Numbered from the whole stretch's first letter, positions 1 to 60,631 are shown. The stretch is 63,990 bases of DNA, filler included, from Fonticula-like sp. SCN 57-25 (GCA_001724245.1; 3 parts of 3 records of this genome joined end to end with filler, not necessarily neighbours in it), one strand, 5' to 3'. Program-made: numbers and translations. The notes: generated by a model not told the origin, from the sequence alone.

Positions 1-1626
1 GAGTCGACCTCGACGTCGCTGTCGATCAGCTGGACCGCCTCTGCCCTCGCCGAGATGTACAACGTCTACTACCGCCCCCTGACTGGCGCGCGCAATGTCA
101 GTGCTGGCTACACATTCGACTCTCACGTCGACGCTGGTGCGTACTTTTTTTTGCTTTGTTTTGCCTAACAATTGCTGCTGTAGATTCGTCGAGCACGACT
201 ATCGAGGACCTGGAGCCCGGCGCGGCGTACGAGATTCTCATCCTCGCCGTTCGCGACGGTCAGGAGGAGCAGGTCGGCTCGCGCCTCGTGCTCACCACGC
301 GCTCTGTCAACGAGAACATTATCGAAGGTTTGCCTACCCTTTTCCTTTCATTGCTGTTCTCACACGTGCATTGATAGACCCTGGCCTTGGCACGAACGGC
401 TCCATTATTGCCGGTGCAACTGTGGGCGGCGTCGTGTTGCTCATGATCATTCTCATCGTTGTCCTTGTTGTGATGCGCCGCCGCCGGAGGTCCACCAAGG
501 CGCGCCTCGAAAAGTTTGGCGGCCAATCAGCTGTGGAGGCGCTCCGCGACTACCGCCTCACTTTGTCGCAGTCGCGCTCGAGTCTCAAGCACGCCGAATC
601 GACGACTCACCTCTCGTACGCTGACAAGACCGTCGTCAACACAGTGATGGAAATGTCGCTGCCTGGTTTCTTGCTCGTCGACTATGCAACATCCGTTCAG
701 CCGGGCCCGGTCATCGAGGTGCGCCCACTTTTGATATTTATTCTTTGCGTGCTTACTGCCTTTAGACGGCTGCGAATGAGACGGCGTACCTTGGCACGCT
801 GATTGACTCTCGTCTCGCGAGCAACTTTGGCAGCAATGAAGTGGCGCTTATTGACTACAATGCCATCGAGAGCATTTCCGAGCACGACAACATGGAGCGC
901 TTCCACCGCGAAGTCAGCGTGCTGTGGTCGCTTTCGTTCCACCCGTCCATCGTGAAGCTGCTGGCGTACTCTGACGAGCCGCGCACCATTTTCACGCGCA
1001 AGTACATGATGAGCCTGCCTTCTTTGCTGGCCGGCCCCGGCTCGCTCTCGTGGGAACAGCGCCTCAACTTTGCTATGGATGTCGCCGCCGCCGTCTCTGC
1101 TGTGCACTCGCTCGTTGTGGCGCACCGCAATGTGCAGACCGCCAGCGTTCTTATTGACAAGGACGTTCACGGCATGATGATTGCCGTTCTCGCTGGCTTT
1201 GGACACTGCCGCGTTCCGTACGCGCCCTATTAAAGTATTTTTTTGTATGCTGACTGTGCTGTTAGTGCTGATGAACACTGTGTGCCCTCTATGATGGATG
1301 TGCGCTACATGTCGCCCGAGGCTGCCCAGCGCTCGATGGGCTCGCTCGCAGGTGAGCCTACAATTGAGGACGACATTGCTTCCGACGTGTACTCGCTCGG
1401 CGTTGTTCTGTGGGAGATTTACCACGGCTCGCGTCCTTATGGTGACGTGTCGGATGACAGCGCACTGCGCACCATTGCAAGCGGCAAGATGCTCAAGTAC
1501 ATGGACGACAGCCCCGACGCGTCGCTTAATACGATTCAAAGGGCTGGTGAGCGCGCGTGTGCTCCGAGCCCTGAGGGGCGTCCTACGGCTGCTGTCATTA
1601 GTGGCATGCTTTCGAATATGTGCTAA
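1..1626 (+). CDS. 3' part of a single-pass receptor pseudokinase (FN3 - TM - degenerate kinase domain), 5' truncated by the window edge
   Basis: Exons ~1-136, 184-327, 378-718, 766-1217 and 1266-1626 with GT-AG introns. FN3 (SISWTAS...LEPGAAYEILILAVRDG), TM (IIAGATVGGVVLLMIILIVVLVVM-RRRRR), kinase-fold motifs HPSIVKLL, HRNV, YMSPE, SDVYSLGVVLWEI, RPTA. Confidence 0.85.
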
Positions 1627-7800: not shown

Positions 7801-10800
7801 CCCTTATGATCGCCGCCGTCTCCTTGTCATACACCTTGACCCCATCATCCTCATGCTTCTTCTTCTCCTTCTCCAACTTGTCCTTGTCATCCACAATGAC
7901 CATGGACTTGTAGGTGAAGCGGTCGTAGAGCTTGTCAAAGAGGGAGGGGGGGGAGAGGTAGTTGCGGAAGGTGAGAAGAAAGTCGTCAATGTACAGGGAA
8001 TCTGTTGAAGGAGGAAGGGGAAGGGAGAGGGAAGGGAATGGTTAGTGAAGGAAAGGGAGGAAAAGAGAGGAAAAAACATAAAAAGAGAAGAAAAGAGAGA
8101 GAAAAAACAAAAAAAGAGAGAAAAGAGAGAAAAAGAGAGAAAAGATCTCTACATATACACTGTACAATATACTGCACAATACACTGTGTATCTCACTGTA
8201 CACTCTGTACACACTATAGTGTAGTGTATACCATACACTATCATACATCATACTATACCATACATACTACAACATACTACACAATCTACACTGCAAATAC
8301 ACAGTACAATCACCAGTATAATCTACACACTACATTCCAGTCTACACCATATGGCATACAGTATATACTATACCATACACTATACACTATACACTATACA
8401 TCATACATCATACTATACCATACACACCATACACACTACACTACAAGTACACTGTACAATCCCCAGTATAATCTACATCATTCCTACAGTGTACACATAC
8501 ACTGTATGTCACATACCATACAGTGTATACTATACACCATACCATACCATACATCATACATCATACCATACATACTATACCATACATACTCATACATACT
8601 ATACCATACATCATACACTCTACTCTACAACTACACCCTACTTTACCCTATTATCCCCCTATTCTCCCCCCCTTCTTCCCACGCACCCGGAGCACTCTCA
8701 TCCGCCAATGCCTCCACCAACGCCTCCACCGTCCCCGCCGTAATCTGATACTTTCCCTCACTCATCGTCCTCACAATCACCGTCCTGCCCCCCTCACTCC
8801 TCGTACTCGTCGCAGGCATCAGGTCGGGATTCCATACTTGATAGATGCTCATGCGACGCATCTTGTCGGGAAGTTCACTTGGTGCCCCATTCATACTGCC
8901 GGTCATAGTGCTATTGGAGCCAAGTGATCCCGTGCTGCTTATGGAGGAGAGCGAGGCAGAGGCAGATGCTTTGCCTTTTTTGCGGCCAAGTGTCTTGCCA
9001 AAGTCGGAGAAAAAGTCGGGTAAAGTAAGCCTTATACTTCCACTCTTGCCCATCGTCCCACCACCATTACTATTTCCACCAGTACTGCTTCCACTATTAC
9101 TTCCACTAGAGAGGTTGTTGACACTGGATGTGCGAGAAGAACGCGACTTTTCATTCGATGATGACGTCACCGATGACGTCACAGCCTGTTTCGAACCATC
9201 ACCCGACGCCTGGTCTTCTGCCAGGGAAGGGACAGAGAGGGAGCGGCGGTCGTCGTGGACAGAGTATCGGTAGGCACGGCGGCCGTCGGGGGAGGGGCGA
9301 GTGCGCAGAGTGCCGTCGCCGAGTTCGCGGTAGCGGCGGTATTGTTCTTCGAGGTAGTTTTTGGTGGCGGATGACTTGCTTAGGGTGCCTGTCGGGGGGG
9401 GAGAAGGGAAGAGAAAGGAAGAGGGTTAGTATGGTGATTATACATGATACATGATACATAATACACTATACATGATACATGATAGAAGATACATAATACT
9501 ATACTATACTATACTATACTATACATGATACATGATACATGATACTATACTATACACTATACTATACTATACACCACTATACTATACTACACTATACACT
9601 TCACTATACACCACACTAAACTATACACCCTATACACTACACCACTATATACCACAGTACAACACTGTCACAGTATTGTACATAATACTCTAATAACATC
9701 ACTTAAATACCCTTGGGTTTACCCTTTACAATAACACTAACCCTTGGTTTTACTCCTTCACAACAACAATAACCCTTTCTTTTTGCCTTCCCTACAACCC
9801 CGCCACAACAATGTCCACTTACAACCCTGCCACAACAATGTGTTCTTCCCCTCTTGCGTACCCTCCGAGATCTCTTCTCCGCTCTGCGTCGGCTGCGTGG
9901 GCGTGCTCGGCGCCGCCTGCGTGGCCGCCGTCTCTGCACCCTGCGGCGCCGGCGGCACAAACAGCGACGTCAGGCGACCCGCAGCGCCGCCGCCGCTCTG
10001 CGCGTGGTGGTGGTGGTGGCCGCCGTGCATCATCATCCCGTCGCCATCGCCCGACACGGGGCTGCCGGGGCTCGTGGGCGATGCGCCATCCTCATCGCCT
10101 TCGGGAAGTGCGCCGGCGAGGGGCGAGGGAAGGCGGTACTTTTTCTCAAAGTAGGACTTGGCGCGCGAGGAGCGGCGGAGCGTGTCCTGAGAGTGGCCGC
10201 CGCCGGTGAGCATGCTCGCGGGCATCGGCATGCCGCCGCCCGATGACGATCCTGATCCCGATCCCGATCCGGATGAGCCCGATGTGACGATGATCGGGGG
10301 CGGCGGGGGGGGCGTGGTGCCCATGAGGGCGCTGCTGCTGCCCGATCCCGGCGAGCTGCTCAGGATCGCCTGCGGCAGCGGCGGCGGCGGCTTGGCGGTC
10401 ACGATCGGAATCGCATGCGATTTTTGGGGAGTCGCTTGAGGGGCAGGCTGAGTGGGCTCTGCGAGGCTCTCGCGGGACGAGTTGTTGGAGGAGGGCATCG
10501 AGGCGGGGCGGTCGCTGCCAGAGGCCGCGCTGGGGGAGGCGATCTCGGGAGAGCTCTTCTTGAGCTGCGACTTTAGCTTGATCACGATCGCGATGGCGCT
10601 GCCGAGGTACTGATGCATCTCGAAAAAGTCGGGCGAGATGAACTTGTGCGTCACAAAGTAGCGGCCTTCCTCAAGATAGCTAAAGGAAAAGGTCTGCTGC
10701 TGCTGCGAATAGGAATACTGAAGAATTTGCTCAATATCAAACTGGTTAATGGTCGACTGGAAGGGGGGAAAAAAAGTCAGCGCGGATCCAACAAGGAACA

Positions 10801-21534: not shown

Positions 21535-23604
21535 ATGACTGACGCGGGCGCCTCCCTTCGCGCCAAGAGCTCTGACCTTGACTGGAAGTGCGTGAACACC
21601 ATCCGCCTTCTCGGCGCGGATATGGTGCAGGCGGCCAACAGCGGTCATCCCGGCGCGCCCATGGGCATGGCGCCGATGGCGCATGTGCTGTTCTCGCGCT
21701 TCTACGAGGGCAACCCGAAGAACCCCAAGTTTGCCGCTCGCGACCGCTTTGTGCTCTCGAACGGCCACGCTTGCGCTCTGCAGTACTCGATGCTCCACCT
21801 CCTCGGCTATGATCTCTCGCTTGATGACCTCAAGGCCTTCCGCAAGCTCGACAGCCGCACGCCCGGCCACCCCGAGAACTTCCAGACTCCCGGTATCGAG
21901 GTGACGACCGGCCCGCTCGGCCAGGGCTTTGCCAACGCTGTCGGTCTCGCCATTGCCGAGAGCCACCTCGCGGCGCGCTTCAACCGCGATGGCTTCAAGC
22001 TCTTTGACAACTACACGTACGTCTTTGTCGGCGACGGCTGCCTCCAGGAGGGTGTCTGCGCCGAGGCCGCTTCGCTCGCGGGCCACCTCGGCCTCGGCAA
22101 GCTCATCGTCCTCTACGACGCCAACAACATCCAGATCGACGGCTCGACCGACCTCGCCTTCACCGAGAACGTCCTCGACCGCTTCAAGTCGTACGGCTGG
22201 CACACGGATGTCGTCGCCGATGGCGACAATGACCTCGTCGATCTCGAGCGCGCGATCGCCGCTGCGCGCCTCGTGACGGACGCCCCCTCGATCATCCGCG
22301 TGACGACCACGATCGGCTATGGCAGCAAGTCGGCCGCCACCGAGAAGGTCCACGGCGCCCCCCTCGGCGCTGCCGACCTCGCCCACGCCAAGACTGCGCT
22401 CGGCTTTGCCCCCGACGCCTCGTTTGTTGTCCCCGACGCCGTCCGCGAGCACTATGCGGCGTTTGCGACGCGCGGCGCCGCCAAGGAGGCCGCCTTTGAC
22501 GCCCTCGTCGCCTCGTACCGCGCGGCTCACCCCGAGCTCGCCGCCGAGCTTGAGCGCCGCCTGTCGGGCGCGCTCCCCGCCGACTGGAAGTCGGTTCTGC
22601 CCCGCTACGCCGCCGGCGACGCGCCCGCCGCGACGCGCAAGTTTTCGCAGAAGGTGCTCAACAAGCTCGCCGAGGCGATCCCCGAGCTTGTCGGCGGCAG
22701 CGCCGACCTTACGCACTCGAACCTGACGTGGCTCGACTGCTCGCACGACTACCAGAAGGCGACGCCGACCGGGCGGTACCTCCGCTTTGGTGTGCGCGAG
22801 CACGCCATGGCGGCCATCTGCAACGGCCTCGCCGCGTACGGCGTCGGCTTTGTGCCGTTCTGCTCGACCTTTTTGACGTTTATCGGCTACGCGCAGGGCG
22901 CGTACCGCCTTAGCGCGCTGTCGCACCACGGCGTGCTGTACATCATGACGCACGACTCGATTGGTCTCGGCGAGGACGGCCCGACGCACCAGCCGATTGA
23001 GGCGCTCGCTTCGCTGCGCGCGACGCCCAACGTGTTTGTTGTTCGCCCGGCCGACGGCAATGAGACGTCGGGCGCCTACGCGGTCGCCATCGAGGCGCGC
23101 TCGACGCCGACGGTGCTGTCGCTCACGCGCCAGAACCTGCCCAACCTTGAGGGCTCGTCGGTGGAGAAGGTGGCGCTCGGCGGTTACGTCCTCCAGGAGG
23201 CGCAGGGCGGCGCTCAGGCCGCCAAGGTGATTTTCGTCGCGACGGGGTCCGAGGTCGCGCTCGCCGTCGACGCGGCCAAGATTCTCGCCGCCGAGGGCGT
23301 CGCCGCGCGCGTCGTTTCGATGCCGTGCACGCAGCTCTTTGATGCGCAGAGCGCCGAGTACCGCCGCTCCGTGCTCCTCGATGGCGTCCCGACGATCAGC
23401 GTCGAGGCCGGCATCGCGCTCGGGTGGGCTTCATACGCCCATGCCCACATTGCCATGCCGTCGTTTGGCGCGTCGGGGCCCGCCTCCGACATCTTTAAAA
23501 AGTTTGGGTTCACCCCGGCCGCCGTTGCTGACAGCGCGCGCAAGGTGATCGCCGCGTACAAGGACGAGAAGCCGCACAGGATCGTTCGCGAGATCGCCTT
23601 GTAA
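21535..23604 (+). CDS. TKL1: Transketolase (intronless)
   Basis: ANSGHPGAPMG, RDRFVLSNGH, TTGPLGQG, GDGCLQEG, FGVREHAM, THDSIGLGEDGPTHQP. Confidence 0.97.
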   Translation: MTDAGASLRAKSSDLDWKCVNTIRLLGADMVQAANSGHPGAPMGMAPMAHVLFSRFYEGNPKNPKFAARDRFVLSNGHACALQYSMLHLLGYDLSLDDLKAFRKLDSRTPGHPENFQTPGIEVTTGPLGQGFANAVGLAIAESHLAARFNRDGFKLFDNYTYVFVGDGCLQEGVCAEAASLAGHLGLGKLIVLYDANNIQIDGSTDLAFTENVLDRFKSYGWHTDVVADGDNDLVDLERAIAAARLVTDAPSIIRVTTTIGYGSKSAATEKVHGAPLGAADLAHAKTALGFAPDASFVVPDAVREHYAAFATRGAAKEAAFDALVASYRAAHPELAAELERRLSGALPADWKSVLPRYAAGDAPAATRKFSQKVLNKLAEAIPELVGGSADLTHSNLTWLDCSHDYQKATPTGRYLRFGVREHAMAAICNGLAAYGVGFVPFCSTFLTFIGYAQGAYRLSALSHHGVLYIMTHDSIGLGEDGPTHQPIEALASLRATPNVFVVRPADGNETSGAYAVAIEARSTPTVLSLTRQNLPNLEGSSVEKVALGGYVLQEAQGGAQAAKVIFVATGSEVALAVDAAKILAAEGVAARVVSMPCTQLFDAQSAEYRRSVLLDGVPTISVEAGIALGWASYAHAHIAMPSFGASGPASDIFKKFGFTPAAVADSARKVIAAYKDEKPHRIVREIAL

Positions 23605-25080: not shown

Positions 25081-26654
25081 ATGGCGCGGTGGAGGGCCGC
25101 GCTGGCCGTGCTGGCAGCGGTTCTACTATGCGGTGCGAATTGCGCAAGCCTTTGCCCTTCCTCCAACTGACAGTCGTACTTGACTCTTTTGGCGTCGCAG
25201 TAAGCAGCGTGAACGACAGCAGGGCGTACGAGTTCGCAGGGGACTATACGTCCATTCACGTGAAGGGAGATAACTTTGGACCCCACAGTACGTCGGCGGT
25301 CGATTAATAGAGATGGCCAAGTTGACGAGTTTATAGAGAACACATACTACTTCAACATGGGATCCGGATCCTCGGCGTCTCTCTACCACTACCTCCAATT
25401 CAACTTTGCGACGATTGCGGTACGCTCTTTGGAGAATCATCCCGTGTTTGCCGTGGCGATGATGATTTCAGCGACCTAATAAATCTTGTGCCCCTTTCTT
25501 TCATGATCGCAGCCAACACCGTCGCGTTTTTGCGCCTATGGTACTCCGACCTTCAACATAATGCCCGTAGCAGCAACTACTTTGGATCAAACCTTTAAAG
25601 AACTCCGCGTCGATGCGCCGACGGCAACATGGTGCGCGCTCCCAGACTATTACCAACGAGCGGACAGCTGATCAAGTTGCGTCGCCGTATTAGGACTCAC
25701 AAGAGTATTACATACAACAACCAGCCCTCGATTACTGCACGCCTGGGTGCATTGGCCACCGCGACCAAGTACATCAAGAATGGGAGGTATGCGCCTGAAA
25801 GCGTTGTTGCTCTTCGTTGCTAAACGAATTGTTTTTTTTCCCTGATAGCTTTGGCGGTGTCCAGATCACTAGAGCCACTCTGAACGCAGCCGTCCGACTT
25901 TCCAACAGCAAGGTGCGAGGTGACCATGCGGCCGTTATGTTTGCTAATGATCCTGTTATAGACTGGCTTCCGCCACACATACATTGACAATTACCTGCTT
26001 TCCTATTATAGCTATTTTTCAGGAACGTCGTATCGTAATTTCATTGCGTTTGATTACCTCACGTGCGACCCGAACGCGACCTGCAACCAAAGCGCCGGCA
26101 CGTGTACCTGCAACTCTGGGTACACCGGCTCGGGCACCTCCTGCCGCCGTACGCTCTGATCAATATTGATCAGCTGATGGCGTTTCATTGACGTTTGCAT
26201 AGTTTTCAACAAATGCGCTGCCACGACGATCAGCAACGCGGCATTCCCGCTTACCAACCACGCAGCTACTGGCAGCGGCACATGCGTCACGACCTTTACT
26301 GGCGCGCCAAAGTCGCTGTGTACCGACGGAACCTTTGGCGCATTGACAGGAACGCAGTGCACCAGTACGACCATTGGATACGAGTGATCCCCGTAATGCT
26401 GACGTCACCATTTCAGAAATTACATGTGCGGCTTTGTCTTCGGGGCCGGGCAGCGCTTCGTACCCCTTGTCCAACGCCGGGACCACCGCCACCGGAACCT
26501 GCGTGTCTGGCTGGTATGGTACACCCAAGTTGGCTTGCGGCAATACCGGAGTCTGGGCGACGACTGCATCGCCGGGATGTACCCGTACGCCAATTTCTCT
26601 TTCTCGATCTGTGCTCACAAGATCCCGCACGCGATCCCCACAGAACATGTCTGT
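25081..26654 (+). CDS. 5' part of a secreted/receptor protein paralogous to 42199-48365 (signal peptide, N-domain, EGF, first 4-Cys repeats), truncated at the gap
   Basis: Signal peptide MARWRAALAVLAAVLLC, shared PTPSRFCA exon start, EGF LTCDPNATCNQSAGTCTCNSGYTGSGTSC, repeat CAALSSGPGSASYPLSNAGTTATGTCVSGWYGTPKLACGNTGVW. Confidence 0.8.
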
Positions 26655-26754
26655 NNNNNNNNNNNNNNNNNNNNNNNNNNNNNNNNNNNNNNNNNNNNTT
26701 AATTAATTAANNNNNNNNNNNNNNNNNNNNNNNNNNNNNNNNNNNNNNNNNNNN
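26655..26754. other. Artificial assembly/concatenation spacer
   Basis: Exactly 100 nt of N with a central TTAATTAATTAA (stop codons in all six frames). Confidence 0.95.
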
Positions 26755-41937: not shown

Positions 41938-42198
41938 GATACGCACGCATTGTGTAAAAATATATAATGGTTCCGTACGATAGTATGCGATGGTGGTACA
42001 TTTGGTATGATACTGGTTCATACCTAGTATGGTGGGTCACCTTGACGATTGTCACGGTAATCTGACGGTAATCTTATCAAGAAATCCATCGAGCCAATCA
42101 GGAGCCTTGCGGGCCAATAGGAGCCAATGGCGTTCGGCTTCTCCGATTGCTTTTTTCTTCTATGGTCTGCAGGCCTGCAGGGCAGCAGGGGAAAGAGG

Positions 42199-45100
42199 AT
42201 GCGCGCGGGGGATCGGCTGCCCTCGTGCCTCCTCATCACCGCAGCACTGCTGTTGGGCCTGCTGGCGAGGGGAACAGGTGCGCTACTTTGGCTGTTTGTA
42301 TTTGCGCAAGGCGATGCTAAGAAAGGTGACCGTCGATTAACAGCGGCCCAGAACACCAAGGTTTTGGCGGCACAATCAACATCGACAAACTATGCAAGCA
42401 CAGGGACAAACTATCTCACCGGCTCCACGTACACTGTGCGGGTTTGCTTATTTTACTGCTGGGAGGAGACCTACACCAGGTCTTATTCGTACACCCTAGG
42501 GACTGGGACAACAGGCGTGACGCTGGTGGCTTACTACTCATTCAACCTTACAACGCAAGCGGTGCGTCAGGATCCCGCGATCTTGCGCGCGCTTTAACTT
42601 GCTAGGGATCCCCATAGCCAACACCTTCTCGCTTTTGCGCAACCGGCGTCCCCAAGCTGTACCTCAGCTATGGCTCCAACAGCAACACTCCCTCTTTCAC
42701 CACAACGAGTACTGCGGATGTTCCTTCGAGTCAAGTGTACGCATTGGCATTCCGATGAATCCCTGCTGACACCCGCCCAGCAACTTTCATACATTGACGT
42801 GGACTAACCAGCCCTCCCTGTCTACTTTCACGGCTCGCACGTCGCACACCAGCTATACCACAGCAGGAACTAGGTGGGTTTATCTTCCTCTCACGCCTAA
42901 CCTTCTCAACGCCGCCGTCCGGCAGTCAAACGCGGCGGTACATCATTTTTTTTCTCCGCCCTTCGCTTGGTCTGATTAAGAATTCTTACAGACGTTCATT
43001 CGCAATTTTCACTTGGCAAATACTGAAGTGCGTTGGGAGTCGCATGTGCAGCACAGCGGGGCGTACAGGCCATACCTGCTTTTCGACTACATTACATGCG
43101 ACCTGAATGCCTCCTGCTCCGGTGGCGCTTGCTATTGTAACCTATACTATTCCGGGTCAGGGACCTCGTGCACCTGTGCGCCACTGCCGTACCCATCGCT
43201 GCACATATTGATCATGTAATAGATTCCGCGTGCGCGGCAAGAACGTCTGGCAACGCTGCTTTTACGATCACAGCCACGGGCGTCACTGCCAGTGGTGCTT
43301 GCGTTGCAGGATACAATACGAGTAGCGGCATTCCCAAGGCTGTGTGCAGTAATACCGTTTGGAGCGCTGTATCGAACCCGTGCACTCGTACGATTGTACT
43401 CTTTCATCGGCTGGAATCTCACGTGGCCACTAGCATCCGCTTGTCTGGCTGACAATACTGGATCTATCGGTAATGCCAATTATCCTCTTACCAACGCCGG
43501 CCAGACTGCCACGGGCACCTGTATCACGGGCTACCTTGGTGCGGCGACGCGTCTGTGCCAGAGCAACGGCGCGTGGGCCGGTTCCGCGACGGTCTCGTGC
43601 ACTCGCCTTACCTGCCCCGCCACGACAATGGACAACGCCAACTTTGCGCTCACCAACAGCATGACGACCGGCCATGGCACCTGCCTCAACGGGTACTCCG
43701 GCTCCCCTTCAAGCGCCTGCTCTAATGCGGGCACCTGGGGCGTTGTCTCCGGTGCTTGTACTCGTACGCACACTACATAATAATTGGATGATTTGCTTAC
43801 AAACATTTGTAGGTGACACGTGCGCTGCGTTCTTGGACGACACGAACAACGTGCAGTGGCCCCAAACAAACTCGCTGACGACCTCGGTCGGCTCGTGCAT
43901 TGCGGGCTTCCAGGGCTCGCCGCAGCGGTCGTGCCAGGCCAGCGGAAGCTGGGCGTCGACCATCACCGGCAGCTGCCTTCCGATCAAGTGCGCTGCCGAG
44001 TCGCTCTTCCAGAATGCTGCATGGCCCGCGACGAACGCTGGCTCAAACGGGATGGGCTCATGCATTACCGGCTACAGCGGGACGCCCGTGCGCCCGTGCT
44101 CGATCGCCGGCGTTTGGGCTTCGTCTGTTTCGCCTGCGTGCTCGCGCAACCTCTGCTCGGTGGCGACCTTTGGTAACGCGAACTGGCCGGCCAACACCCA
44201 TTCAATGACGACGGCAACCGGCACGTGCGTTGCTGGCTACTCGGGAACCCCCTCTCGCGCCTGCCACGCCGATGGCACATGGTCCGAGGCGATCACGAAC
44301 CCGTGCGTGCAGCTGTTCTGCCCGTCAACCCAACTGAACGATGCCAACTGGTCGCACACCGCCGCGGGTACCACCTCTGTGGCGGGCGAGTGCGTCGCCG
44401 GCTACAGCGGCACGCCTACGCGCGGCTGCGACCTCACCGGCAACTGGCAGACTGTGGCTGTACCGTGCACCCGCAACCGCTGCATCGGTGTGACGGAGGG
44501 CTTTGCCGACTGGGCTGCCACCGATTCGCTCACGACGGTTTCCACGACGTGCCGGGTCGGCTACCACGGCAGCCCGAGCCGCACCTGCGGCGCCGACGGT
44601 ACCTTTGGCGAGATCATCAACCCCTGCCAGCCCATAATTTGTAGCGCACACAACCAGGATAACGCGTTATGGTCAAACGCCGATTCCGGCTCGAACGCCA
44701 CTGGTGTTTGTGGCCTCGGTTGGGCCGGCTCGCCGACGAGGGAGTGCAGCATCACGGGAACGTGGGGTGCCATTTCGTCTCCTTGCACGCGCATCACCTG
44801 CGCTGCCACCAACGACTCATCGGCCCTGGCGCTTTTCCCCGCGGCCAATGGTGGTAGTAAAGATGTGCCTGGGACATGCTACGACAACTCGTATGGTTTC
44901 CCGGCGCGCGACTGTTTCTACAACGGGACGTGGTCGGAGGTGAGGAACCCGTGCAGCTCCAACCCGTGCCCGGCCCTGCGCAACAACGGCCACGCTGATT
45001 GGGAGAGCCCTATGGCCCCCGGCATGCTTGTGACAGGCACGTGTGTGGCCGGCTACGATACGACGCTACCGCCGCCGCAGCGCATGTGCAAGGGCAACGG

Positions 45101-48100
45101 CCAGTGGGACGCAGAGATCACCAACCCTTGCCAGCCGATTTACTGCACCAAGACATCGGGAAGTTACTCTCCATTCAACGCTGATTGGCCCAACTCGGTA
45201 CAGGCCGGCTTTTCAGCCACAGGCACATGTGTTGCTGGCTACACAGGCACACCGACGCGTACTTGCTCGATTACAGGTGAGTGGGGTACTCCATCGCCCG
45301 TCTGCCAGGCGATCCGCTGCGCTGCGATCGGCAACGACGGTGCGCACAGCTCGTGGCCGCAAATGCAAGCTGGCCAGAGCGCCTCGGGCACATGCCTCGC
45401 GGGTTACGAGGGCACGCCTACGCGCACATGCAGCCTCAATGGCCAGTGGGAGGCTCTTTTGTCTCCCTGTACTCAGAAGAAGTGCCCTGCCGGCACGACG
45501 TCCAACAGCGCGTGGGAGGAGACGCTCGGTGGCCTTACGGCCACTGGCACCTGCGTGCCTGGCACGACCGGCTCGGTTACGCGCACGTGCTCATCGGACG
45601 GGGTCTGGGGCCAGATCGATGGCGCGTGCTCTGGCGTCATGTGCCCGGCCGAGACTACTGACAATGCGGAGTGGCTGGATACCCCGCAGAGCAACGTCGC
45701 CTCGGGCTCGTGCGTGACCGGCTACGGCCCCGACCCGGCGCCTACCCGCTCGTGCCTTGAGAGCGGCGTCTGGGGACCCGTAAGCGGAGCCTGCGTGCGC
45801 CTTGCCTGCCCCGGAGCAACGTTTGAGAACGCTGTTTGGCCGACGGAGAACTCAATGACGGAGGGCGTGCGTGGCACGTGCGTCGCCGGCTGGGTTGGCG
45901 CCCCGCTGCGCAACTGCTCGGTGACTGGCCAGTACTCTGCCGTGGCCAATCCATGCGTTCGTATTACATGCGCGGCCCTTGACAGCGAGACCGGCGCGTG
46001 GGCGTTGACCAACGCAGGAACGACCGGCGTACAAGGTATCTGCCCCGTCAGCACTGATGGGTCGCCCGTCCGCGACTGCGGAATGAACGGCACGTGGAGC
46101 GGGATCCTGGGCGGCGAGTGCGTTGCGCGGTTGTGCTCTGCCGAGTCGTCCGGCCTCATTGACTGGCCCGCCACGACTGCGGGCAGCGCGGTTCCCGGAA
46201 CATGCCCGACCGGCTACTTGGGAAGCCCGTCGCGCGCGTGCCTGTCCACTGGAGTGTGGGGTCCAATTGCAAACCCGTGCGTGCAGAACGTCTGCCCTGC
46301 CGTGTTTGACGGCCACGTGGCGTGGCCTACGACGCTGTCGCTGTCAGCGCCCGTTGATGGCGATTGCGAGACCGGCTACTTTGGCGCCCCATCGCGGCTG
46401 TGCGGCGACGACGGCATCTGGGGCGCGATTGAGAATCCGTGCGCTGCGCTGCTTTGCCCTGCCGTGCTTGACGGAAACGCCGACTGGTTTGCCACAAGCG
46501 CTGGGGCCGAGACGGTCGGCCAGTGCATTTCTGGCTACCATGGAACGCCTCGTCGGCAATGCCTTCTTTCGGGGGCCTGGAGCGCCAACATTAGCGACGC
46601 GTGCACGATCAAGTACGATGACTGCCCAAGCAGCACTGTCGGGATGACATTCTTTTCGCCAGCCTCGCCGGGTACAGCGAGCGAAGGCAACTGCGCCACT
46701 GGCTACGAGTTTGCCCCTGAAGGCCCACCGACACGCTACTGCCATGCCAACGGCACATGGGAAGCGACCTTTTCTCGTCCCTGTACTTTTAGTGCGCTGG
46801 TTTTGTTGTGAATTTTTCTTGCGCTAACGTTGTTTCTGCAGCCCCTATTGTCGGCGGCCAGCTGAGGAACCTGCATTGGACGAGCAAGACGTCGCATTCC
46901 GTTTCTCTTGCGTGGACGGCGGTGAATGCGACGGCCAACACGACGTTCCGGGTCGAGGTGGCGACGCTAACTGGGTCGTTTGTCGTGGCCAACATGGGCG
47001 GTACGTGGCCACCATGCATGACTTATGCGCACTTACATCATCATCAGGTGCCGTGAACATTGTCGAGCGACAGGTGGTCATTCTTGGCCTCACTCCAAAT
47101 ACCGGGTATCAGTTCCGTGTCACCCTCGGTGAAAGCTACGACTATACCGACATTGGCGCGGTGGTCATTCAAACCAAGACGTATATTCAGCGTATGACAG
47201 TTTACCGCATAACTATTGCCTTGATTGCTGACCTGCATATGATCAGCGGCGGCCTCTTTCCGGCTGGAGGTTGGGTCGCACAACTCGCTTCGCGTGAGCT
47301 GGACCGCCTCGCCTCAAGGCGCCTATTACGAGCTGTGGTACCGCACGCTGGCGACCCGCGCGGCGTCGGACGGTTTTACTTTATTCAGTCAGCTCGGAAG
47401 CGGTGCGCTTTTTGTGTGCTACTTGCCTGCGTTTCTAACGAGTCGCGTAGCTTCAACCGAGGCAACGATAACCGGGCTTTCAGCCTCGCAGTCGTACGAG
47501 CTGTTGCTGCTTGCGGGCCGCGACGGCGAGACGGAGCAAGTCGGCGTGCGCATGACGGCGACCACATCACCATCAGAGAACACTGCCGACAATAATGGTG
47601 CGATATCCAATTTTGTTGACGTGAATCCGTGCGCTCATGTGGGTTGCTAGGTAACACCTTGAACGGCGAAGTGTCAATTGGTCTGATTGTCGGCGCTGTT
47701 GTGGGCGGTCTTGCCCTCATTGTCATCATTATTGTGCTGGTGCTGTACGTGCGCGGCCGCGACCATGTGGTGGACCGCTCCAAGGCGGGTGTCTTTGGCA
47801 GCATGATGGCTCTGGTGCGATTTCATATTCAATGGACACGTTTGCTCACCTCTGTTGTATGCAGAATATGCTCAGATCGTACAGCGATGGCCCGGGGTCA
47901 GGCGACATTGGCGGGAATTTGGATGCCTCTTTGGATGCTTCTTTGGAATCATTTTCTGCTGTGGTACCCGCCTCGGCCTCCTATGCGTCGCGCGCATATG
48001 TCCCGCATAGTGCTCTCGCGCAGGAGGAGCAGGATCAGCCTCCCGAATACGACTATGTTGCTGCCGGCCCTGTCGACACCAAAGGCGATGGCAAAACTGG

Positions 48101-48365
48101 CCTGCCTTCCAGCCACGTGGGAGAGAAAGAAGCCATGGAGAAAGAATGGCAATCTGCAACGTTGCAGCCGGATTCGCGCATGACAACCACCGCTTCGTTG
48201 ATGCCGACGACTGATCTTTATCCGTTTTATTCTGCTGACGACGCGTCGCCTTCGTCGGCACAACCGGCAAGTTCGTCGACAATGGCGCGGAGCAACACGC
48301 GATCGGGCGCAAGTGGAGTTAAATTACATAGCTCCGACAAAGGCGCAACATTTGATCGCAAGTAG
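42199..48365 (+). CDS. Large type-I membrane protein: signal peptide, N-domain, EGF, 21 tandem 4-Cys HRM/sushi-like repeats, 2 FN3, TM, low-complexity cytoplasmic tail with PPxY
   Basis: Multi-exon model with GT-AG introns. Repeat consensus C-x(8-12)-W-P-x-T-x-A-G-x4-G-x-C-x2-G-Y-x-G-x-P-x-R-x-C-x3-G-x-W-x(6-8)-C; TM IGLIVGAVVGGLALIVIIIVLVLYV; tail ends TFDRK*. Confidence 0.88.
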
Positions 48366-48445: not shown

Positions 48446-48690
48446 TGTTTGTATTGGTAATGACGTTTGCTCTTCTTTCGTTTATATCGACGTGGTGATG
48501 ATTAAATCTCACTCACTCAGTGATGATACTAATATGTGAATTATATCTGGCCGACTATAGGCCTTTTGTATTTTTTTGTATTGGTAAAGACATTGCTCGT
48601 CTTTCGTTTTATACTATCGTGGTGATGAAATATTCCACCCACTCAGTGTTGATATATTAATAAATGCATTATATCTGGCCGACTTTAGGA
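48446..48690. repeat. Diverged tandem duplication of a ~125-bp unit
   Basis: Both copies share GTATTGGTAA, TCTTTCGTTTATA, CGTGGTGATGA, CACTCAGTG and ATTATATCTGGCCGACT. Confidence 0.8.
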
Positions 48691-48840
48691 TGCAAACTTT
48701 TTGCCACTGCAATGGAGCCAGTACTGTGCCGACCTTCCAACGACCAATGAGACATCAGCCATATCAAGAGAGTAAAACACAGCGTCAAACGACAAAAGTT
48801 CTAATTTTATGTTTACCATTGCCATATAATACAGAGTTGT

Positions 48841-54103: not shown

Positions 54104-54203
54104 NNNNNNNNNNNNNNNNNNNNNNNNNNNNNNNNNNNNNNNNNNNNTTAATTAATTAANNNNNNNNNNNNNNNNNNNNNNNNNNNNNNNNNNNNNNNNN
54201 NNN
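54104..54203. other. Artificial assembly/concatenation spacer
   Basis: 100 nt of N with a central TTAATTAATTAA. Confidence 0.95.
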
Positions 54204-54324: not shown

Positions 54325-57300
54325 TATCAATTCCCTTCAAAATTCACGATGCCTATCAAATCCAATAAAGAACGTGATTACAATCTTACGTACAGACCAA
54401 GGAATCCTCTTCAAAAATCTCGACGCATATCAAACCTAATAAAGAACAGGGTTATGATTATTATCACAGTCCAGAATAATCCTCTTGAAAAATCAAAACG
54501 CCTTTCAAATCCAATAAAATAGGGGGATTATGGGATTACGACAGTCCATTAAATTTTGGTTTCGAAATCCGGATTTCAACTCTTCAACAATCCCCTTTAA
54601 AAATCAAAAGGCCTTTCAAATCCAATAAAGAACGGGTTTATATTTTTACGTACAGACCAACAATTCCCTTCAAAAATCAAATTGCCTTTCTAATCGAATA
54701 AACAACTTGATTACTTTTTTAGCCAATGTTATTTCCAGTATGGAGGACACACTTGCCATTGATACAGGCCCTCATAAACCATAAATGACTATGAAAAGGA
54801 ATACCGGTAAAAGACATGGATACATTCTTCGGGACAGACCCTCAATAAATCAAATTGCCTTTCAATTTGAATAAAGTCGGGCTTTCTACCAAACCTTAGG
54901 GACAGACTAACTCTCTCCAACCTGGCACCGACCCAACACCCGTCGGTCGCGGATGACCCCTCTTTGTCGGCGGATAATATGGAACTGAGTGATACCAAAC
55001 GATTACTAAGCCTCTTCTGCGCTCGCCGACAAATGGCTCACCCGAACTAATGCTTTTTGAGCGCAGGAGAGGTCTTGGAACACAGGTACCTCAAATCGAG
55101 GATACAAAGTGTACCATACAATCCAATCACTTGGATCCAAGCGACCGAACATAGGTGCCCTCCAGTGTTTTTGACTTTAGGGCTAAACGATCCTGCTCAA
55201 AAATACAATCTTGCTATTGATCACGATTTTCAGAAGAGATTAGGAGGAATTTGGGTTCCCGTAACCCAACCCGTAACCCAGATTCGCAACCCAGATGCCA
55301 AGACATAGCAACCATAAATATGTCATACGGGACAACGCATGTTGCAAGGAATACCAAACGGCATAGTATGGCCACAACGCAAGAGCCGCTACTTTAGAAC
55401 AAGAGAATGGGGTCTGCAAAGTATGCGATCACCATCTGGCATCCGACTCGACGCGGATGATTTCCGTCGGTCGCGGATGATCCCACATTGTTGGCAGAAT
55501 ATATGAAATTGAGTGGTACCAAACAACTATTGGGCCTCTGCTGCGCCCGCCTACAAATGGCCCACCCGAATTAACGCCTTTTGAGCGCAGGAGAGGACTT
55601 GGAAGACAGGTACTCCAAAACAAGGGTACAAAGTGTACTATACGCTCCATATCACTTGGATCCAAGACACCGAACATAGGTGATCTGCCCGTAGTGTCGA
55701 CTTTAGGGCCAAACAATCCTACTCAAAAATACGATCTTGTTATCGATTACTATTTTCAAGTGAGATTAGGCAATTGTGGTTCCCGTAAGGGAATCCCGTA
55801 ACCCAGATTCGCAACCCAGATGTCGTACAGTCCAAGTCCATTAATATGTCATACAGTATTGGACAACGCTTGCAGATATTACCAAATGGCATAGTACGGC
55901 CATAAAGCGAGAGCGCTTACTTTGCAGACCCAATATTCTTTCTCTAAAGCCAAGCGATCACCATCGGGCATCCGACGCGACACGGATGATTTCCGTCGGT
56001 CGCGGATGATCCCACATTGTCGGCGGATAATATGGGATTGAGTGGTACAGAGCGACTCCTGGGCCTCTGCTGCGCTTGCCTACAAATGGCCCACTCGAAT
56101 TAACGTCTTTTGAGTGCAGGAGAGGTCTTGAAACATAGGTACCCCAAACGAGGGTACAGTGTGTACTATGCACTCCATATCACTTGGATCCAAGTGGTCA
56201 AAGTCCACATTTTAACTCCTAACAATCCCCGTCAAAAATCAAAACGCCTTTCAAATCCAATAATGAACGGGTTTATATTTTTACGTACAGACCAAGCAAC
56301 TCACTTCAAAAATCACGATGCCTTTCAAATCCAATTAGTATCGGGTTTACTTTTTTACGTACAGACCAAACAATTCCCTTCAAAAATCAAAATGCCTTTC
56401 TAATCGAATAAACAACATGGTTACTTTTAGCCAATGTTATTTCCAGGAGGACCCGTCAAGGACAAACTTGCCAATAAATACAGGCCCTCGAAAATGAAAA
56501 CTGACTATGAAAAGGAATAAAAACGTGGTTACATTTTCCGCGACAGTCCACTCAATAAATCAAGTTACCTTTCGAACTGAATAAAGTCGGGCTTTCCGCC
56601 CATCCTTTCGGACAGACTAACTCGGACTTGAGCCAATCACAGGTCTTGGATTCAAGTCGGTTCTAGTCGGTTTTGTTGAAATAAATAGCCGAATCGGCTT
56701 GAAAAATCAAGTTGCCTTTCAAACCGAATAAAACCCAGAAATGTGAAACTTTTTCATTTTTGATCCCGAGCACCGACTCGCCTCGTAAAATAGACATTTT
56801 CAATGGAGCGCATTTTGAACGAGGTTTCTTTTTCGTGAGGAGGAATATATTCTTTCACAATCCTCTTCAAAAATCAAATTTGCCTTTCAAACGAATAATT
56901 GATGTGGTTTAATATTTGTTTTGGATTACAAACACAGCCTAAAAATCTCCGTGAAAAATCAGAATTCCCATCAAATCGAATAATGTCTGCGATTATGTCA
57001 CATCGCCAGCCTCCTCGCTCATATGAGACCAATGGTCGATATCTGGTCGATATCAGCGCAAGAAATAACAAAGCCGAATAAAGAGATCCAAGAGATCACA
57101 ATGCGTTTGGTCATATAAATAGCCCCTGGTGCTTAAGAGATTTGTTTAACAATGATTTTGCCCATCAGGAATGCTCACCATCCGAGCACAGCGGCGATGC
57201 GCGATATCGCTGCGATATCAGTTCGATATCGCGCGGGAAATGGTATAGCCGAGTAAAGAGATCCTAGAGATCACCTTGCATGTGGTCATTTAATGGCCTT

Positions 57301-57641: not shown

Positions 57642-60631
57642 CTACGTAAAGTCCCAGCTCTTGCTGTGCTCGACCGACTCGACCGACGACGTGTCGTCGT
57701 TATCCTTGGAGTCGCCGTGCGTGGCGAGCCACTGCTGGTACCTCGCGATCACCTCCGTAAGAATGCTCGTGTCGCCCGCGCGCTTAATGAACGGGTGCTC
57801 GAGCAGCTGGCGGGCCGTGGCGCGCTTCTTGGGGTCCTTTGACAGGCACTGCGCAATAAAATCCTTAAAGTTGGCCGAGTGCCCAGGCGACTGCAGCGAC
57901 GGCGCGGGGTTGCTCACAATGAGGTACAGCATGCGCATCGGGTGCATCTGCGCGTTGGGCGGCACGCCGTCCGCGCACTCGATCGCAGTGATGCCGAGCG
58001 ACCAAATGTCGGCGCGCATGTCGTAGCCGTGGTTCAGGATGATCTCGGGCGCCATCCACGCGGGCGTGCCGGTGAAGGTGTTCTTGCGCGTGAGAGAGTC
58101 GGTGAGCTGACCGGCAACGCCAAAGTCGCACAGCTTGACATCGCCGCGCTCGGAAAGCAAAATATTGGCGGCTAAAATAGGGAAAAAAGACGCGTTTTGG
58201 TTAGCTCTCTGCATCAAAATTCATGTTTCTGCGCGTATTTTCGTACCTTTAATGTCGCGGTGCAGCTTGCGCTGGCCGTGCAGATAGTCGAGCCCCTTGA
58301 GCACCTCGCGCATAATAATTGCAATGCACCTCTCATCGAGCGGCCCGCTCTTTAAAATATCAAAGATTGACCCGCCCGCCAGATGTTCCATAATGATCCA
58401 CAGCTGGCGCTCAACAATATACGACCCGAAATAGCGCGTAATGTGCGTCGACACAAACTGCGCCATGAACGCAATCTCCATCTGCAGCTCCATCAAATCA
58501 TCCTTGCGGTCTTCCAAATCAATAATCTTGATTGCGACAATCTCGCCCGTCTCCTGATCGAGCGCCTTGTACACTTCACCAAACGACCCGCTGCCAATCC
58601 TCTCAATCTTGCGGTACTTTTGCTTGATATTTATGCGCGACATTGTGCGCCTGAAAAACTGCAGCTGCTCATCCGACGCGCTCCTCTTGCGCCGCAGCGC
58701 CGCGAGCACCTGGCCGCGCACGACCGCCGCCTCCTCGAGCTGCTTCTTGTCCGCCGCCGGGCCGGCATTCCTCACGAGCGTCATGTGCGCAAAGTCAGCC
58801 GCCATCTGGTCCGCCTCGCGCGGGTTGGCGCTAAACGTCGCGTCAAACGAGCGCTGAACTTCGGGCGACAGAATTGCGCGATTGGGGCCTTCGAGGACAA
58901 CGTCCTGCTCGTAAAAGATGCCTTCGGCGCCCTCGCAGCGGCCGAGGTACTTGCCGTTGCCGCGGCGCTCGAGGATCGTGATCAGCTCGCCTTGAAGGAA
59001 CATGAGCTCATTGTCGTTCTCGGCAATGTGGTCGCGGATCGCCACGGCGGTTGCGGCTTCATCCTTTCTCGCGGGCAGCTTCACGGTCGTGTCGGGGCGC
59101 TTGGCTTTCCGGCGCGCCTTGCGCTCGGCTTCGTCTTCCTTGGAGGAGATCGAGCTGTCGTCGTCTTTTTTGGAGGAGGAAGAAGTGTCTTCCTTTTCAG
59201 ACTTGGTGCGCTTGTGCTTTTTCTTCTTGTCAGCGTCGTCCTTGTCGGCCTCTTTTTCCTTTTCTTTTTCCTTTTCCTTGCTGCTCTTGTCCTTGGATTT
59301 CTCTTCCTTGTCCTTGGATTTTTCTTCCTTGTCCTTGGATTTTTCCTTGTCCTTTGAGCGGCTTTCCTTGTCTTTCGACTTTGTCTCCTTTTCCTCCTTG
59401 TCTTTAGACTTGGATTCCTTCTCGTCCTTGTCTTTCGACTTGGATTCCTTTTCCTCCTTGTCTTTCGACTTGGACTCCTTTTCCTCCTTGTCTTTTGACC
59501 TGCTCTCCTTGTCCTCCTTGTCTTTCGATTTACTCTCCTTCTCCTCCTTTTCCTTGCGCTCCTTCTTGCCGCACGAGCTGTCCTTTAGCGGCTCGACCGT
59601 ATCCTTTAGCTCCTTTGACTTTTTCGACGCCTTTTCCTCCTTGGCCTCCTTGTCCTTTGACTTTTCCTTGACCTTTTCCTCCTTGGCCTCCTTCTCCTTG
59701 CTCGACTTTTTCGTCAGCACCTCGCTGTCGCCCGACTCTGCGCGCTTCTCCGCCGCCGCCGCGGCCGCCGCCGAGCCCGAGCGCAGAATTGTGCCTGTGT
59801 CCTGCGCCATGGACCGCTTCGTGGGCGTCTCGACCTCGATGACGGTGTCGCGGTTGGCGCCGCGCCTGCTCGACGACGGCTCGCGCATCATGACAGGGAC
59901 GGTGTCGTCCTTGGGCGCCGACTTGCGCTCCTTTTTCTCCTTGCTGCTCTCGACGGCGGCGTCGTACATCGGCGCGCGCTCGTAGGAGAGCGGGCCCGGG
60001 TTGACGACGTAGCGGTGCCGCTCCTCGTCCTCCATCTGCGCGCGCGCCCGCGACGTGATGATGCGGTTCTTGGGGCTGCTGCTGACGCGCGAGGCGCTGG
60101 AAGAGGAGCCGTCGAGCGCGTGCAGGAGGGGGGAGGAGGACGTGGAGGCGCTCGCCTTGCCGGCGTGCGAGGGGATTGGGATCGGCGCGGTCTGCGGCGA
60201 CGTCCGCTCCCACCAGGGGATCGACAGAAAACGGATAGAGTCGCCGTGAAGGGTGCCGGCAAAGCCCTGGCACTCGCCCTTGAACATGTTGTTGGGCAGG
60301 CGGCCGAGGATCGTCACCACGTCATCCTTGAGAAACATCAGCTCCTTGGGGGTGCTGGCAACGTGATCGCGAAGCGCGATGGCTTCTAAAAGGCCATCTG
60401 GAAAGAGGGAAAAAGAGGAAAAAAGAAAGGAAAAAGTAAGAAACCAGGAATGCAGCAAGGGGATCCCGCATGCGGCGTACCATTGGAGGGATCGTAGCAC
60501 TCGTCGCTCGCAAAGGGACCGAGCACGCGCGCCACCTTTAGGCGGTATCCCTTTCGCGTGATCTCGCCGTTGGTATACTCGCGGCGAAGGGCCTCAAGCT
60601 GCTGCCTAGCGAACGGGGGAAGAGCCGCCAT
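57642..60631 (-). CDS. STE20/GCK-family Ser/Thr kinase with N-terminal DMAP1-binding-like domain, two SH3 domains and a Lys/Glu-rich repeat
   Basis: IGSGSFGEVYK, VAIKIIDLE, HRDIK/AANILL, VKLCDFGVAGQL, TFTGTPAWMAPE; SH3 AIRDHIAENDNELMFLQGELITIL..G.CEG..GIF; introns 60398-60480 and ~58172-58246. Confidence 0.92.
59285..59560 (-). repeat. Coding tandem repeat (mostly 30-bp units) encoding KDKEEKESKS
   Basis: Repeated ccttgtctttcgacttggattccttttcct units on the + strand. Confidence 0.85.

Follow-up and report, generated by a model that had tools for sequence, protein, structure and literature searches.

The stretch of DNA analysed here, 63,990 nucleotides (nt) long and called the window below, carries on its plus strand, at 42199..48365, a gene for a large membrane receptor whose ectodomain is dominated by a row of small Cys-containing modules. 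The gene model has 14 exons and runs from an ATG at 42199 to a TAG stop codon at 48363-65. Its coding sequence (CDS) of 5,520 nt is in frame without internal stop codons, giving a product of 1,839 residues with the layout of a type-I membrane protein, namely a signal peptide, an N-terminal domain (N-domain, or head), an EGF-like unit, 21 modules, two FN3 domains, one transmembrane (TM) helix and a tail. The structure of the gene, the order of the domains and the absence of a kinase were established in this analysis. An earlier note on this DNA had placed at these coordinates a surface protein with 21 consecutive four-Cys modules, and both its coordinates and its content proved right, with exactly 21 modules and 84 Cys residues counted.

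Exons 1 to 5 span 42199-42277, 42326-42561, 42618-42736, 42781-42937 and 42992-43175; exons 6 to 10 span 43223-43387, 43434-43763, 43813-46791, 46842-47000 and 47048-47191; and exons 11 to 14 span 47247-47402, 47451-47597, 47651-47814 and 47865-48365. On the plus strand, the locus displays a 1048-codon open frame (43665-46811) with many short open stretches on both sides. Homology-guided junctions 3' of the big exon set the intron pattern, and this pattern was applied upstream together with frame continuity. The 13 introns are 44-56 nt long each; 12 have donors of the form GT[AG][CT]G and one has GTACAT, and CTNAC-like branch sites were seen. All eight introns from that following exon 5 to that preceding exon 13 are in phase 1, as is usual in animals for extracellular modules that have been shuffled. 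A neighbouring gene of the same family at the window start (141-1265) has introns of this style, and a crude count of the intron-like pattern over the window gave 51 candidates, as compared with 31.8 +/- 5.4 in 20 shuffles.

The model is least certain for the N-terminal exons. They are backed by a second gene of the family in the window (paralog B, described below), in which exons 2-5 have conserved counterparts and the signal peptide is immediately followed by a phase-1 GTGCGA donor. In the database protein P0170, the segments matching exons 4 and 5 adjoin without interruption and show 35% and 46% identity, respectively, to the exons of the target gene. Intron 1 (42278-42325) is in frame and might be read through or retained, and an in-frame ATG at 42127 represents an alternative start; read-through of intron 4 meets a stop codon. 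An additional intron at 42436-42479 was considered and rejected, its frame being poorly protein-like and paralog B favouring the unspliced reading.

Exon 1 (42199..42277; all features of this gene are on the plus strand) holds the start codon and a signal-peptide-like N-terminus, MRAGDRLPSCLLITAALLLGLLARGT, which was read from the sequence and has an equivalent in the first exon of paralog B. The N-domain of ~195 residues follows in exons 2-5 (42326..43096, with the portion 42992-43096 of exon 5) and was delimited by splice logic, paralog B and P0170; that it is split over many short exons, as proposed earlier, agrees with the four to five short exons of our model. The EGF-like unit (43097..43171) was recognized by its Cys pattern (C-x5-C-x4-C-x-C-x10-C). 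Module 1 (43231..43383) has four Cys residues, is devoid of the W motif and matches no Pfam family at E<=10, and modules 2-3 (43442..43759), in exon 7, were identified by Cys register and a per-module Pfam scan. Modules 4-21 (43821..46784) all lie in the single exon at 43813-46791, as indicated by the open frame, Pfam, structure prediction and fold matches.

Downstream of the modules, FN3 domain 1 (46842..47191) is encoded by exons 9 and 10, separated by an intron at 47001-47047, and shows 62% and 33% identity to residues 1003-1108 of the related database protein P0015. FN3 domain 2 (47247..47597), in exons 11 and 12 with an intron at 47403-47450, is 37% identical to residues 1098-1203 of the same protein. 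Identity to the FN3 pair of the intronless relatives P0015 and P0016 is thus 33-62%, and the pair in these relatives scores 37 bits with Pfam fn3 in two stretches. In the target, each half exon of FN3 domain 1 matches fn3 with an E value of 0.02, and the half exons of domain 2 gave no Pfam match. The EGF-like unit has five Cys residues rather than six and no Pfam match at E<=1; its equivalents in the relatives P0169 and P0174 reach 27-28 bits with EGF_3, for a cut-off of 28.5. The EGF domain and two FN3 domains announced earlier are therefore upheld for the FN3 pair, by its identity to relatives, whereas the EGF assignment stays below the Pfam threshold in the target.

The TM helix, IGLIVGAVVGGLALIVIIIVLVLYV (25 residues, 47677..47751), is followed by RGRD; it was read from the sequence and has weak matches to TM-region families. 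The cytoplasmic tail (47752..48365, with an intron at 47815-47864) comprises 187 residues plus the stop codon, is probably disordered and contains seven Tyr residues, including PPEYDYVAAG. It matches no Pfam family, its sequence is unrelated to the juxtamembrane region of the paralogs, and a tblastn search of the window with P0015 and P0016 gave no kinase match near 48 kb. The exon model and the Pfam scans yielded one TM and no GAIN or seven-transmembrane (7TM) match, in agreement with the single-pass topology that had been proposed.

The modules have the Cys spacing C-x22-27-C-x11-15-C-x11-13-C, with the 84 Cys in full four-Cys register. Eighteen of them are encoded in the 2,979-nt exon and three in two short exons, and the linkers between them are four residues long in 19 of 20 cases and six residues long in the other. 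Their pairwise identity averages 38% (range 24-57%). No DNA-level tandem array was seen inside the gene with Tandem Repeats Finder, which argues that the module copies are old and individually maintained. A W...R-x-C...G-x-W core marks the HRM (hormone-receptor) domain, and in the modules a W is found between the first and second Cys in 16 of 21, R-x-C3 in 19 and C3-x3-G-x-W in 18; [WFY]xxT is present in 14. The consensus given in the earlier note was hence approximately right for these core positions but not for its WP, which only eight modules possess.

We compared the scores of the modules with the relevant Pfam profiles. On the big exon, HRM (PF02793) reaches 112.7 bits in 10 stretches, Ephrin_CRD 55.9 bits and Sushi (PF00084) 52.3 bits in four stretches. 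Scanned one by one, as the earlier note had suggested, 13 of the 21 modules have HRM as their best family, five have Ephrin_CRD, one has Sushi and two have none. At E<=10, 15 of the 21 are listed for HRM, and two are at or above its gathering score of 26.2 bits (m18 with 28.9 and m21 with 27.4). Three modules reach the gathering score of Sushi (20.7 bits), and none reaches the Ephrin_CRD cut-off of 27, the best being 23.9. Four animal CCP arrays from the same searches, in which Sushi collects ~30 bits per module, were used as controls. Their Sushi and HRM scores are 387 and 44 bits for the P-selectin-like P0039, 419 and 31 for P0009, 1035 for P0007 (SVEP1) and 295 for P0011, the latter two having no HRM match at E<=0.01. 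Thus, Sushi is far above HRM in all four animal arrays, whereas HRM is above Sushi in all eight family members scanned, with HRM/Sushi bits of 113/52 for the target exon, 130/39 for P0013, 119/49 for P0014, 149/35 for P0015, 202/98 for P0019, 155/57 for P0020, 105/40 for P0031 and 61/50 for P0035. As this order is opposite to that of the animal arrays, the clear scoring as ordinary CCPs that the earlier note had regarded as fatal to its proposal is not what we found. More generally, the profile names HRM and Sushi can mislead for proteins of the sushi fold unless such controls are run.

A structural model of modules 18-19 was obtained with AlphaFold 2 (AF2), for which 18 pairs of adjacent modules of the window were aligned. 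It has a mean pLDDT of 97.1 and a pTM of 0.77, and is all-beta with no helix. At E<=1e-3, a Foldseek search of the PDB with this two-module model gave 12 matches, the first being beta2-glycoprotein I (beta2-GPI), the cysteine-rich domain (CRD) of EphA2, the CCPs of C2/factor B and the SCRs of E-selectin, with CD46, CR1 and DAF among the further matches. The check by AlphaFold and Foldseek that had been called for thus returned a confident sushi fold, with CCP and EphA2 CRD matches.

Structural alignments with VIA-align, a search independent of Foldseek, ranked the related domains; the Z values are no more than intermediate according to the caution given with the tool, but their order agrees with that of the profile scores. 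For one module, the EphA2 CRD sushi domain ranks first (Z 8.0, 1.3 Å over 55 residues, 27% identity), and EphB2 is at Z 6.9 (1.8 Å over 53 residues). HRM/HormR structures, i.e. those of Gpr126, VIPR2, GHRHR, PTH2R, CTR, GCGR, GPR110, PAC1R, CRFR1 and CELSR1, align with Z 5.0-6.3 (1.9-2.7 Å over 48-55 residues, 18-30% identity); no class-B G-protein-coupled receptor (GPCR) ectodomain was among the 50 Foldseek matches listed for the two-module model, but VIA-align did find them. Single classical CCPs (factor H CCP10-11 and IL-15R-alpha) have Z 4.5-4.6 (2.2-2.4 Å over 52-55 residues). When both modules were aligned with tandem CCP pairs (beta2-GPI, CD46, E-selectin 4c16, SPICE and factor H), Z values of 5.9-7.0 were obtained (3.1-4.5 Å over 103-108 residues), with beta2-GPI at Z 7.0 across both modules and 108 aligned residues.

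The HRM ectodomains of class-B GPCRs have six Cys residues, three disulfides and an N-terminal helix, and this helix and the extra disulfide help shape the peptide groove. The four Cys residues of each module align with the HRM Cys residues of the two sushi disulfides. With four Cys residues each and no helix in the AF2 model, the modules lack both the N-terminal helix and the third disulfide, and they are therefore read as a sushi-fold subtype rather than as HRM in the strict sense. One could still consider a true HRM array, in which each module would be a hormone-receptor-type unit and the protein a multivalent peptide receptor, forerunner of the class-B and adhesion GPCR ectodomains. That HRM ranks first among the Pfam families on the big exon and on 13 modules would fit this reading, as would the conserved Trp, Arg-x-Cys and Gly-x-Trp positions and the alignment with HRM ectodomains. 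Nevertheless, the missing pair of Cys residues and helix, the two modules only that attain the HRM gathering score, the better structural match to an Eph CRD sushi and the lack of 7TM or GAIN domains make it very unlikely.

The opposite simplification is that of an ordinary CCP/sushi protein, whose repeats would be divergent complement-control-type modules and whose HRM scores would be cross-matches within one fold. The four-Cys pattern, the W before the fourth Cys and the four-residue linkers are all CCP-like, the top Foldseek matches are tandem CCP proteins, the tandem pairs of beta2-GPI, CD46, SPICE and factor H align well, and two of the animal arrays, P0039 and P0009, themselves cross-match HRM. 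We nonetheless hold this explanation to be unlikely, given that Sushi collects just 52 bits over 18 modules, with three of the 21 at its cut-off, as compared with 295-1035 bits for the animal arrays, and that Eph and HRM domains give better alignments than single classical CCPs do. The modules have a sushi fold of an HRM/Eph-like subtype. They form a compact version of this fold with the Trp/Arg/Trp core of HRM, are nearest to the Eph CRD sushi and are not strict HRM members. The HRM-like character claimed in the earlier note is thus real but partial, since the profile signature and the fold match are present, while the third disulfide, the helix and the 7TM context are absent and the gathering score is attained by two modules.

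The N-domain had been described as unrecognised, a statement that we can amend, as its C-terminal half weakly resembles CBM96/DNRLRE domains. Exon 4 matches CBM96 (PF24517) with 14.7 bits and an E value of 0.028 over profile positions 88-128. A phmmer search with exon 5 among 1.84 billion representatives gave 14 proteins at E<=1e-3, including P0170 at E 6.4e-7. P0170 in turn matches CBM96 at E 2.3e-5 (24.7 bits for a cut-off of 26, profile positions 86-154) and the NCBIfam domain DNRLRE_dom (NF033679) at E 0.0034 (17.5 bits for a cut-off of 34), and its best named match in the ESM Atlas, at 0.95, is a CBM96 cluster, to which eight of its 30 matches in that set belong. NCBIfam gave no match on the N-domain exons of the target. 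A phmmer search of PDB sequences with P0170 returned no match at E<=10, and a profile of the head alignment found only weak EGF-type matches in the PDB, e.g. NELL and reelin. No single N-domain exon matched the Ephrin-binding domain (PF01404) or Lectin_C in Pfam, Lectin_C being detected with 54.6 bits in the control P0039. From these profile similarities, the head may be a carbohydrate-binding beta-sandwich of the CBM96/DNRLRE type; this is a consistent lead and not a result, and we consider it possible but somewhat less than probable. The CBM96 family is reportedly founded on an alginate-binding module.

The receptor is not alone. Over the module exon, the nearest proteins in the databases share 63-72% identity with it, and PF02793 is present in the precomputed annotation of all 29 proteins listed, with kinase Pfam families in seven of the 28 non-self matches. 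Relatives with up to 18 or more modules joined to FN3 domains, a TM helix and a kinase-like domain exist in the databases. P0015 (1588 residues) and P0016 (1549 residues), whose ectodomains are 66-69% identical to that of the target, read straight through modules, two FN3 domains, TM helix and kinase-like domain; P0015 has 12 HRM stretches, two fn3 and a kinase domain in Pfam, and is devoid of SAM. Longer relatives (2,727-4,100 residues, 32-34% identity) have additional Ephrin_rec_like repeats, and the only NCBI-named matches are animal proteins of the SVEP1/P-selectin type, at 22-28% identity. The kinase-like domain of P0015 and P0016 scores 82.6 bits with PK_Tyr_Ser-Thr and 76.6 bits with Pkinase. 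In PDB searches, that of P0015 finds CTR1, Src, Lck and Eph all at E values of 1e-10 to 1e-9, and it is far from every solved kinase. Both proteins keep VAVK/VVVK and HRDLRSSN, and the Asp of DFG is absent.

Two other members of the family are found in the window itself, on the same strand. The 3' part of paralog A, detected by tblastn with P0015 and P0016, occupies 16..1623 and codes for the second FN3 domain, the TM helix, a juxtamembrane region and a kinase-like domain, its 5' end being beyond the start of the window. Pkinase scores 37 bits on 766-1230, and the kinase part of P0015 and P0016 matches the window only at 769-1623. Its motifs are degenerate, with the Lys of VAIK replaced by Ile, HRD by HRN and DFG by GFG, and it is likely a receptor pseudokinase, judging from these residues. 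Paralog B (25081..26654), found by tblastn with the N-domain of the target, comprises a signal peptide, N-domain exons, an EGF-like unit and two modules, and ends at a gap at 26655; its N-domain is split into more exons than that of the target. The target is the kinase-less member of a much-expanded receptor family, in which others carry, in place of its tail, a divergent and probably inactive or atypical kinase-like domain. For the 63-72% identical members, labelled 'ena', an origin as paralogs in this same assembly is more likely than orthology, as we infer from the lack of any transketolase between 100% and 68% identity to that of the window (see below).

The presence of kinase-bearing relatives brings up two other explanations. 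In the first, the protein would be a proto-Eph receptor, i.e. a homolog of animal Eph receptors (head, Cys-rich region, two FN3 domains, TM helix and kinase) that has lost its kinase. The best fold matches of the module, EphA2 and EphB2, point in that direction, together with the five modules for which Ephrin_CRD is the best family, the FN3 pair, TM helix and kinase-like domain of the relatives, and the Eph kinases found at ~E 1e-9 among the top PDB matches of the P0015 kinase domain. In Eph receptors, sushi precedes EGF; here the EGF-like unit comes before the modules, and SAM is missing. Furthermore, the single N-domain exons give no Ephrin_lbd signal and the head points to CBM96, Ephrin_CRD never attains its cut-off, and the kinase domain is equally near CTR1 (TKL) and Src, with degenerate motifs. 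As for the literature, in favour of this reading Arcas et al. (PMC6993872) trace the oldest 'central Eph architecture' down to Filasterea, and against it Suga et al. (PMC4342544) report no tyrosine kinases in Nuclearia or Fonticula. On balance, a proto-Eph origin appears very doubtful to us.

In the second, the kinase-less copy would act mainly as a decoy or dominant-negative form, which soaks up ligand or damps the signalling of kinase-bearing paralogs by pairing with them, and not as an adhesion receptor in its own right. The high identity of its ectodomain to those of P0015 and P0016, combined with a tail unrelated to their juxtamembrane region, is what one would expect of such a protein. 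However, the kinase domains of the paralogs look inactive (P0015 and P0016 have no DFG Asp, and paralog A has neither the Lys nor the Asp), so there would be little catalytic signalling to damp, and the tail is long, at 187 residues, and has Tyr motifs. We therefore grant this role little probability.

Taking these data together, we lean slightly towards the view that the gene is intact and codes for an adhesion or recognition receptor, a type-I membrane glycoprotein of a nucleariid-like protist working in the selectin mode, which would be the kinase-less member of an expanded family with kinase-like members. Selectins carry their lectin head on an EGF unit and a stalk of CCPs, which lead to a TM helix and a short non-catalytic tail. 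The 21 modules and two FN3 domains of the target might similarly form a long, fairly stiff stalk. CCP/sushi modules measure 3-4 nm, which would give a stalk length of ~70-80 nm. Such a stalk could hold the head past the cell coat of a phagotrophic amoeba, where the head might bind a glycan-bearing ligand on prey, on the substrate or on another cell. Signalling or uptake could then proceed via the tail, which has a YxxPhi-like motif (YDYV), or by lateral pairing with the kinase-bearing paralogs. That the modules serve as a stalk, that the head binds glycans and how the signal is passed on are inferred.

A number of points weigh against this proposal. The parallel with selectins is one of architectural analogy, and the target differs from them by having no C-type lectin and two added FN3 domains. 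The exon model was read from genomic sequence, and the profile scans of the head covered its exons one by one. In those scans, the other single N-domain exons matched no Pfam family, and exon 2 had no match in Pfam or the ESM Atlas. All CBM96 signals of the head are under the curated cut-offs and confined to its C-terminal half, the strongest ones coming from the paralog P0170, not from the target. The AF2 model of the P0170 fragment has a pLDDT of 36.7 and shows no usable fold; because of this model, of the null result for exon 2 and of the null PDB searches, the CBM96 reading is a lead only. Lastly, the motifs of the tail are short and could have arisen by chance.

The genes around the receptor give indications on the source of the DNA. 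The other genes of the window are housekeeping genes of eukaryotic type, coding for a prolidase, GMPPB, a transketolase, a DEAD-box helicase, TGS1, Med1 and Alg9. The intronless transketolase gene (21535-23598, plus strand) has a Nuclearia transcript as its nearest named match (68% identity), the chytrid, blastocladian and mucoromycote proteins being at 58-64%, and those of Parvularia and Capsaspora at 61% each; the protein collection searched yielded no transketolase with an identity between 68% and 100%. In a maximum-likelihood tree of 28 rows, it groups with Nuclearia and one JGI protein with 94/94 support, beside Parvularia and Fungi. This tree of one gene supports a nucleariid-like holomycotan, hence an opisthokont protist, as the source.

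A Med1-like gene on the opposite strand starts ~480 nt 3' of the target, and the intergenic segment just 3' of the stop codon of the target contains two copies of a 126-bp unit (48448-48702, 77% match). Four runs of 44 N, which we read as scaffold gaps, form two pairs with 12 bases between the members of each (26655-26698 and 26711-26754; 54104-54147 and 54160-54203). Beside the second pair, related tandem units of 73-74 bp are present in low-GC sequence at 54585-54721 and 56221-56428, ~1.6 kb apart. The region 5900-9800 is AT-rich, has a C-over-G skew and abounds in degenerate CA/TA-type micro- and minisatellites (e.g. CATA x56 at 7495-7729), which create long spurious His/Thr-rich open frames. 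On the minus strand, a gene at 57645-60593 codes for SH3 domains and, after them, a protein kinase domain that is split over at least two exons, and 21-42-bp tandem repeats in it code for a charged low-complexity region.

An artefact, whether through decay to a pseudogene, mis-assembly of a repeat or contamination by animal DNA, would find some footing in the four short gaps of the scaffold. It is barely credible, since the 5.5-kb CDS is unbroken with 84 of 84 Cys residues kept, no DNA-level repeat is present that could collapse in assembly, the short introns of GTRCG type are shared with the neighbouring gene, and the gene has housekeeping neighbours, of which the transketolase groups with Nuclearia.

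Animals and their nearest unicellular relatives are commonly credited with having invented both the HRM domain and the Eph-type receptor design. The window, which probably comes from a Nuclearia-like organism on the fungal side of the opisthokonts, holds three members of the family described here: besides the array of 21 modules, there are paralog B, with the same head, and paralog A, with a kinase-like domain. This family provides a sequence-defined test of whether HRM, Eph CRD sushi and CCP modules go back to one pre-holozoan ancestor. It is conceivable, though rather unlikely, that the modules survive from an ancestral sushi-type module behind both the HRM of GPCRs and the Eph CRD sushi, and that the Eph-like design and HRM predate the split between animals and fungi. 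If true, neither would be of holozoan origin, and both would have been lost later from Fungi. The sole printed exception that we found is a count of HRM-bearing membrane proteins in the nucleariid Fonticula alba: the available text of an eLife 2025 survey of GPCRs (PMC12716839) states that HRM is absent from all analysed non-holozoans except F. alba, where five transmembrane proteins other than GPCRs contain HRM (one legend gives six), and leaves undecided whether homology, transfer or convergence accounts for them. The accessible part of a preprint on the Nuclearia thermophila genome (10.1101/2023.12.07.570557) mentions neither HRM, sushi, fn3 and EGF domains nor kinases. In the literature searched, we came across no account of single-pass proteins with HRM-like modules in tandem, nor of the target family, PMC12716839 being the only related report. 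The occurrence of HRM in non-GPCR membrane proteins of a nucleariid is therefore already in print, and the architecture of the target is new in detail.

Among known systems, classical CCP/SCR arrays such as those of factor H, CR1, beta2-glycoprotein I and SVEP1 share with the target the fold, the four-Cys pattern, the short linkers and the arrangement in a head-to-tail rod. In contrast with them, the modules of the target are shorter, have very low Sushi scores and possess the W(P)xT motif and, ahead of the third Cys, an Arg. With HRM/HormR domains (PF02793), they have in common the W(P)xT...G..C...R-x-C...G-x-W...C signature, the rank of best Pfam family and fold matches at Z 5.0-6.3; they differ by their four rather than six Cys residues, the absence of an N-terminal helix, their length of ~50 residues, their 21 copies and the lack of an accompanying GAIN or 7TM domain. 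The HRM proteins of F. alba, for which PMC12716839 gives no more than a number, are like the target nucleariid, HRM-scoring membrane proteins without 7TM. The sushi domain of the Eph CRD (PF25599) is the best structural match of the module, and in Eph receptors as in the target an FN3 pair and a TM helix follow, with a kinase-like domain in the relatives. Unlike Eph receptors, however, the target has its sushi module multiplied 21-fold and preceded by EGF, and shows no ephrin-binding domain match, no SAM and no kinase.

In overall order, the parallel is with the P-, E- and L-selectins, which also have a lectin-type head, an EGF-like unit, tandem sushi modules, a single TM helix and a short non-catalytic tail; the P-selectin-like P0039 was among the sequence matches and E-selectin (4c16) among the fold matches. 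Selectins have a C-type lectin head, whereas that of the target shows a weak CBM96 likeness, and they possess 2-9 modules, compared with 21 of the HRM/Eph-like subtype here. The target further differs in its two FN3 domains, its protist origin and its membership of a family with kinase-like members. Any similarity to selectins would hence be one of design rather than of demonstrated descent. The target points to a lectin-like head carried on a stalk in a phagotrophic amoeba, a receptor that may have a role in the recognition of prey or substrate.

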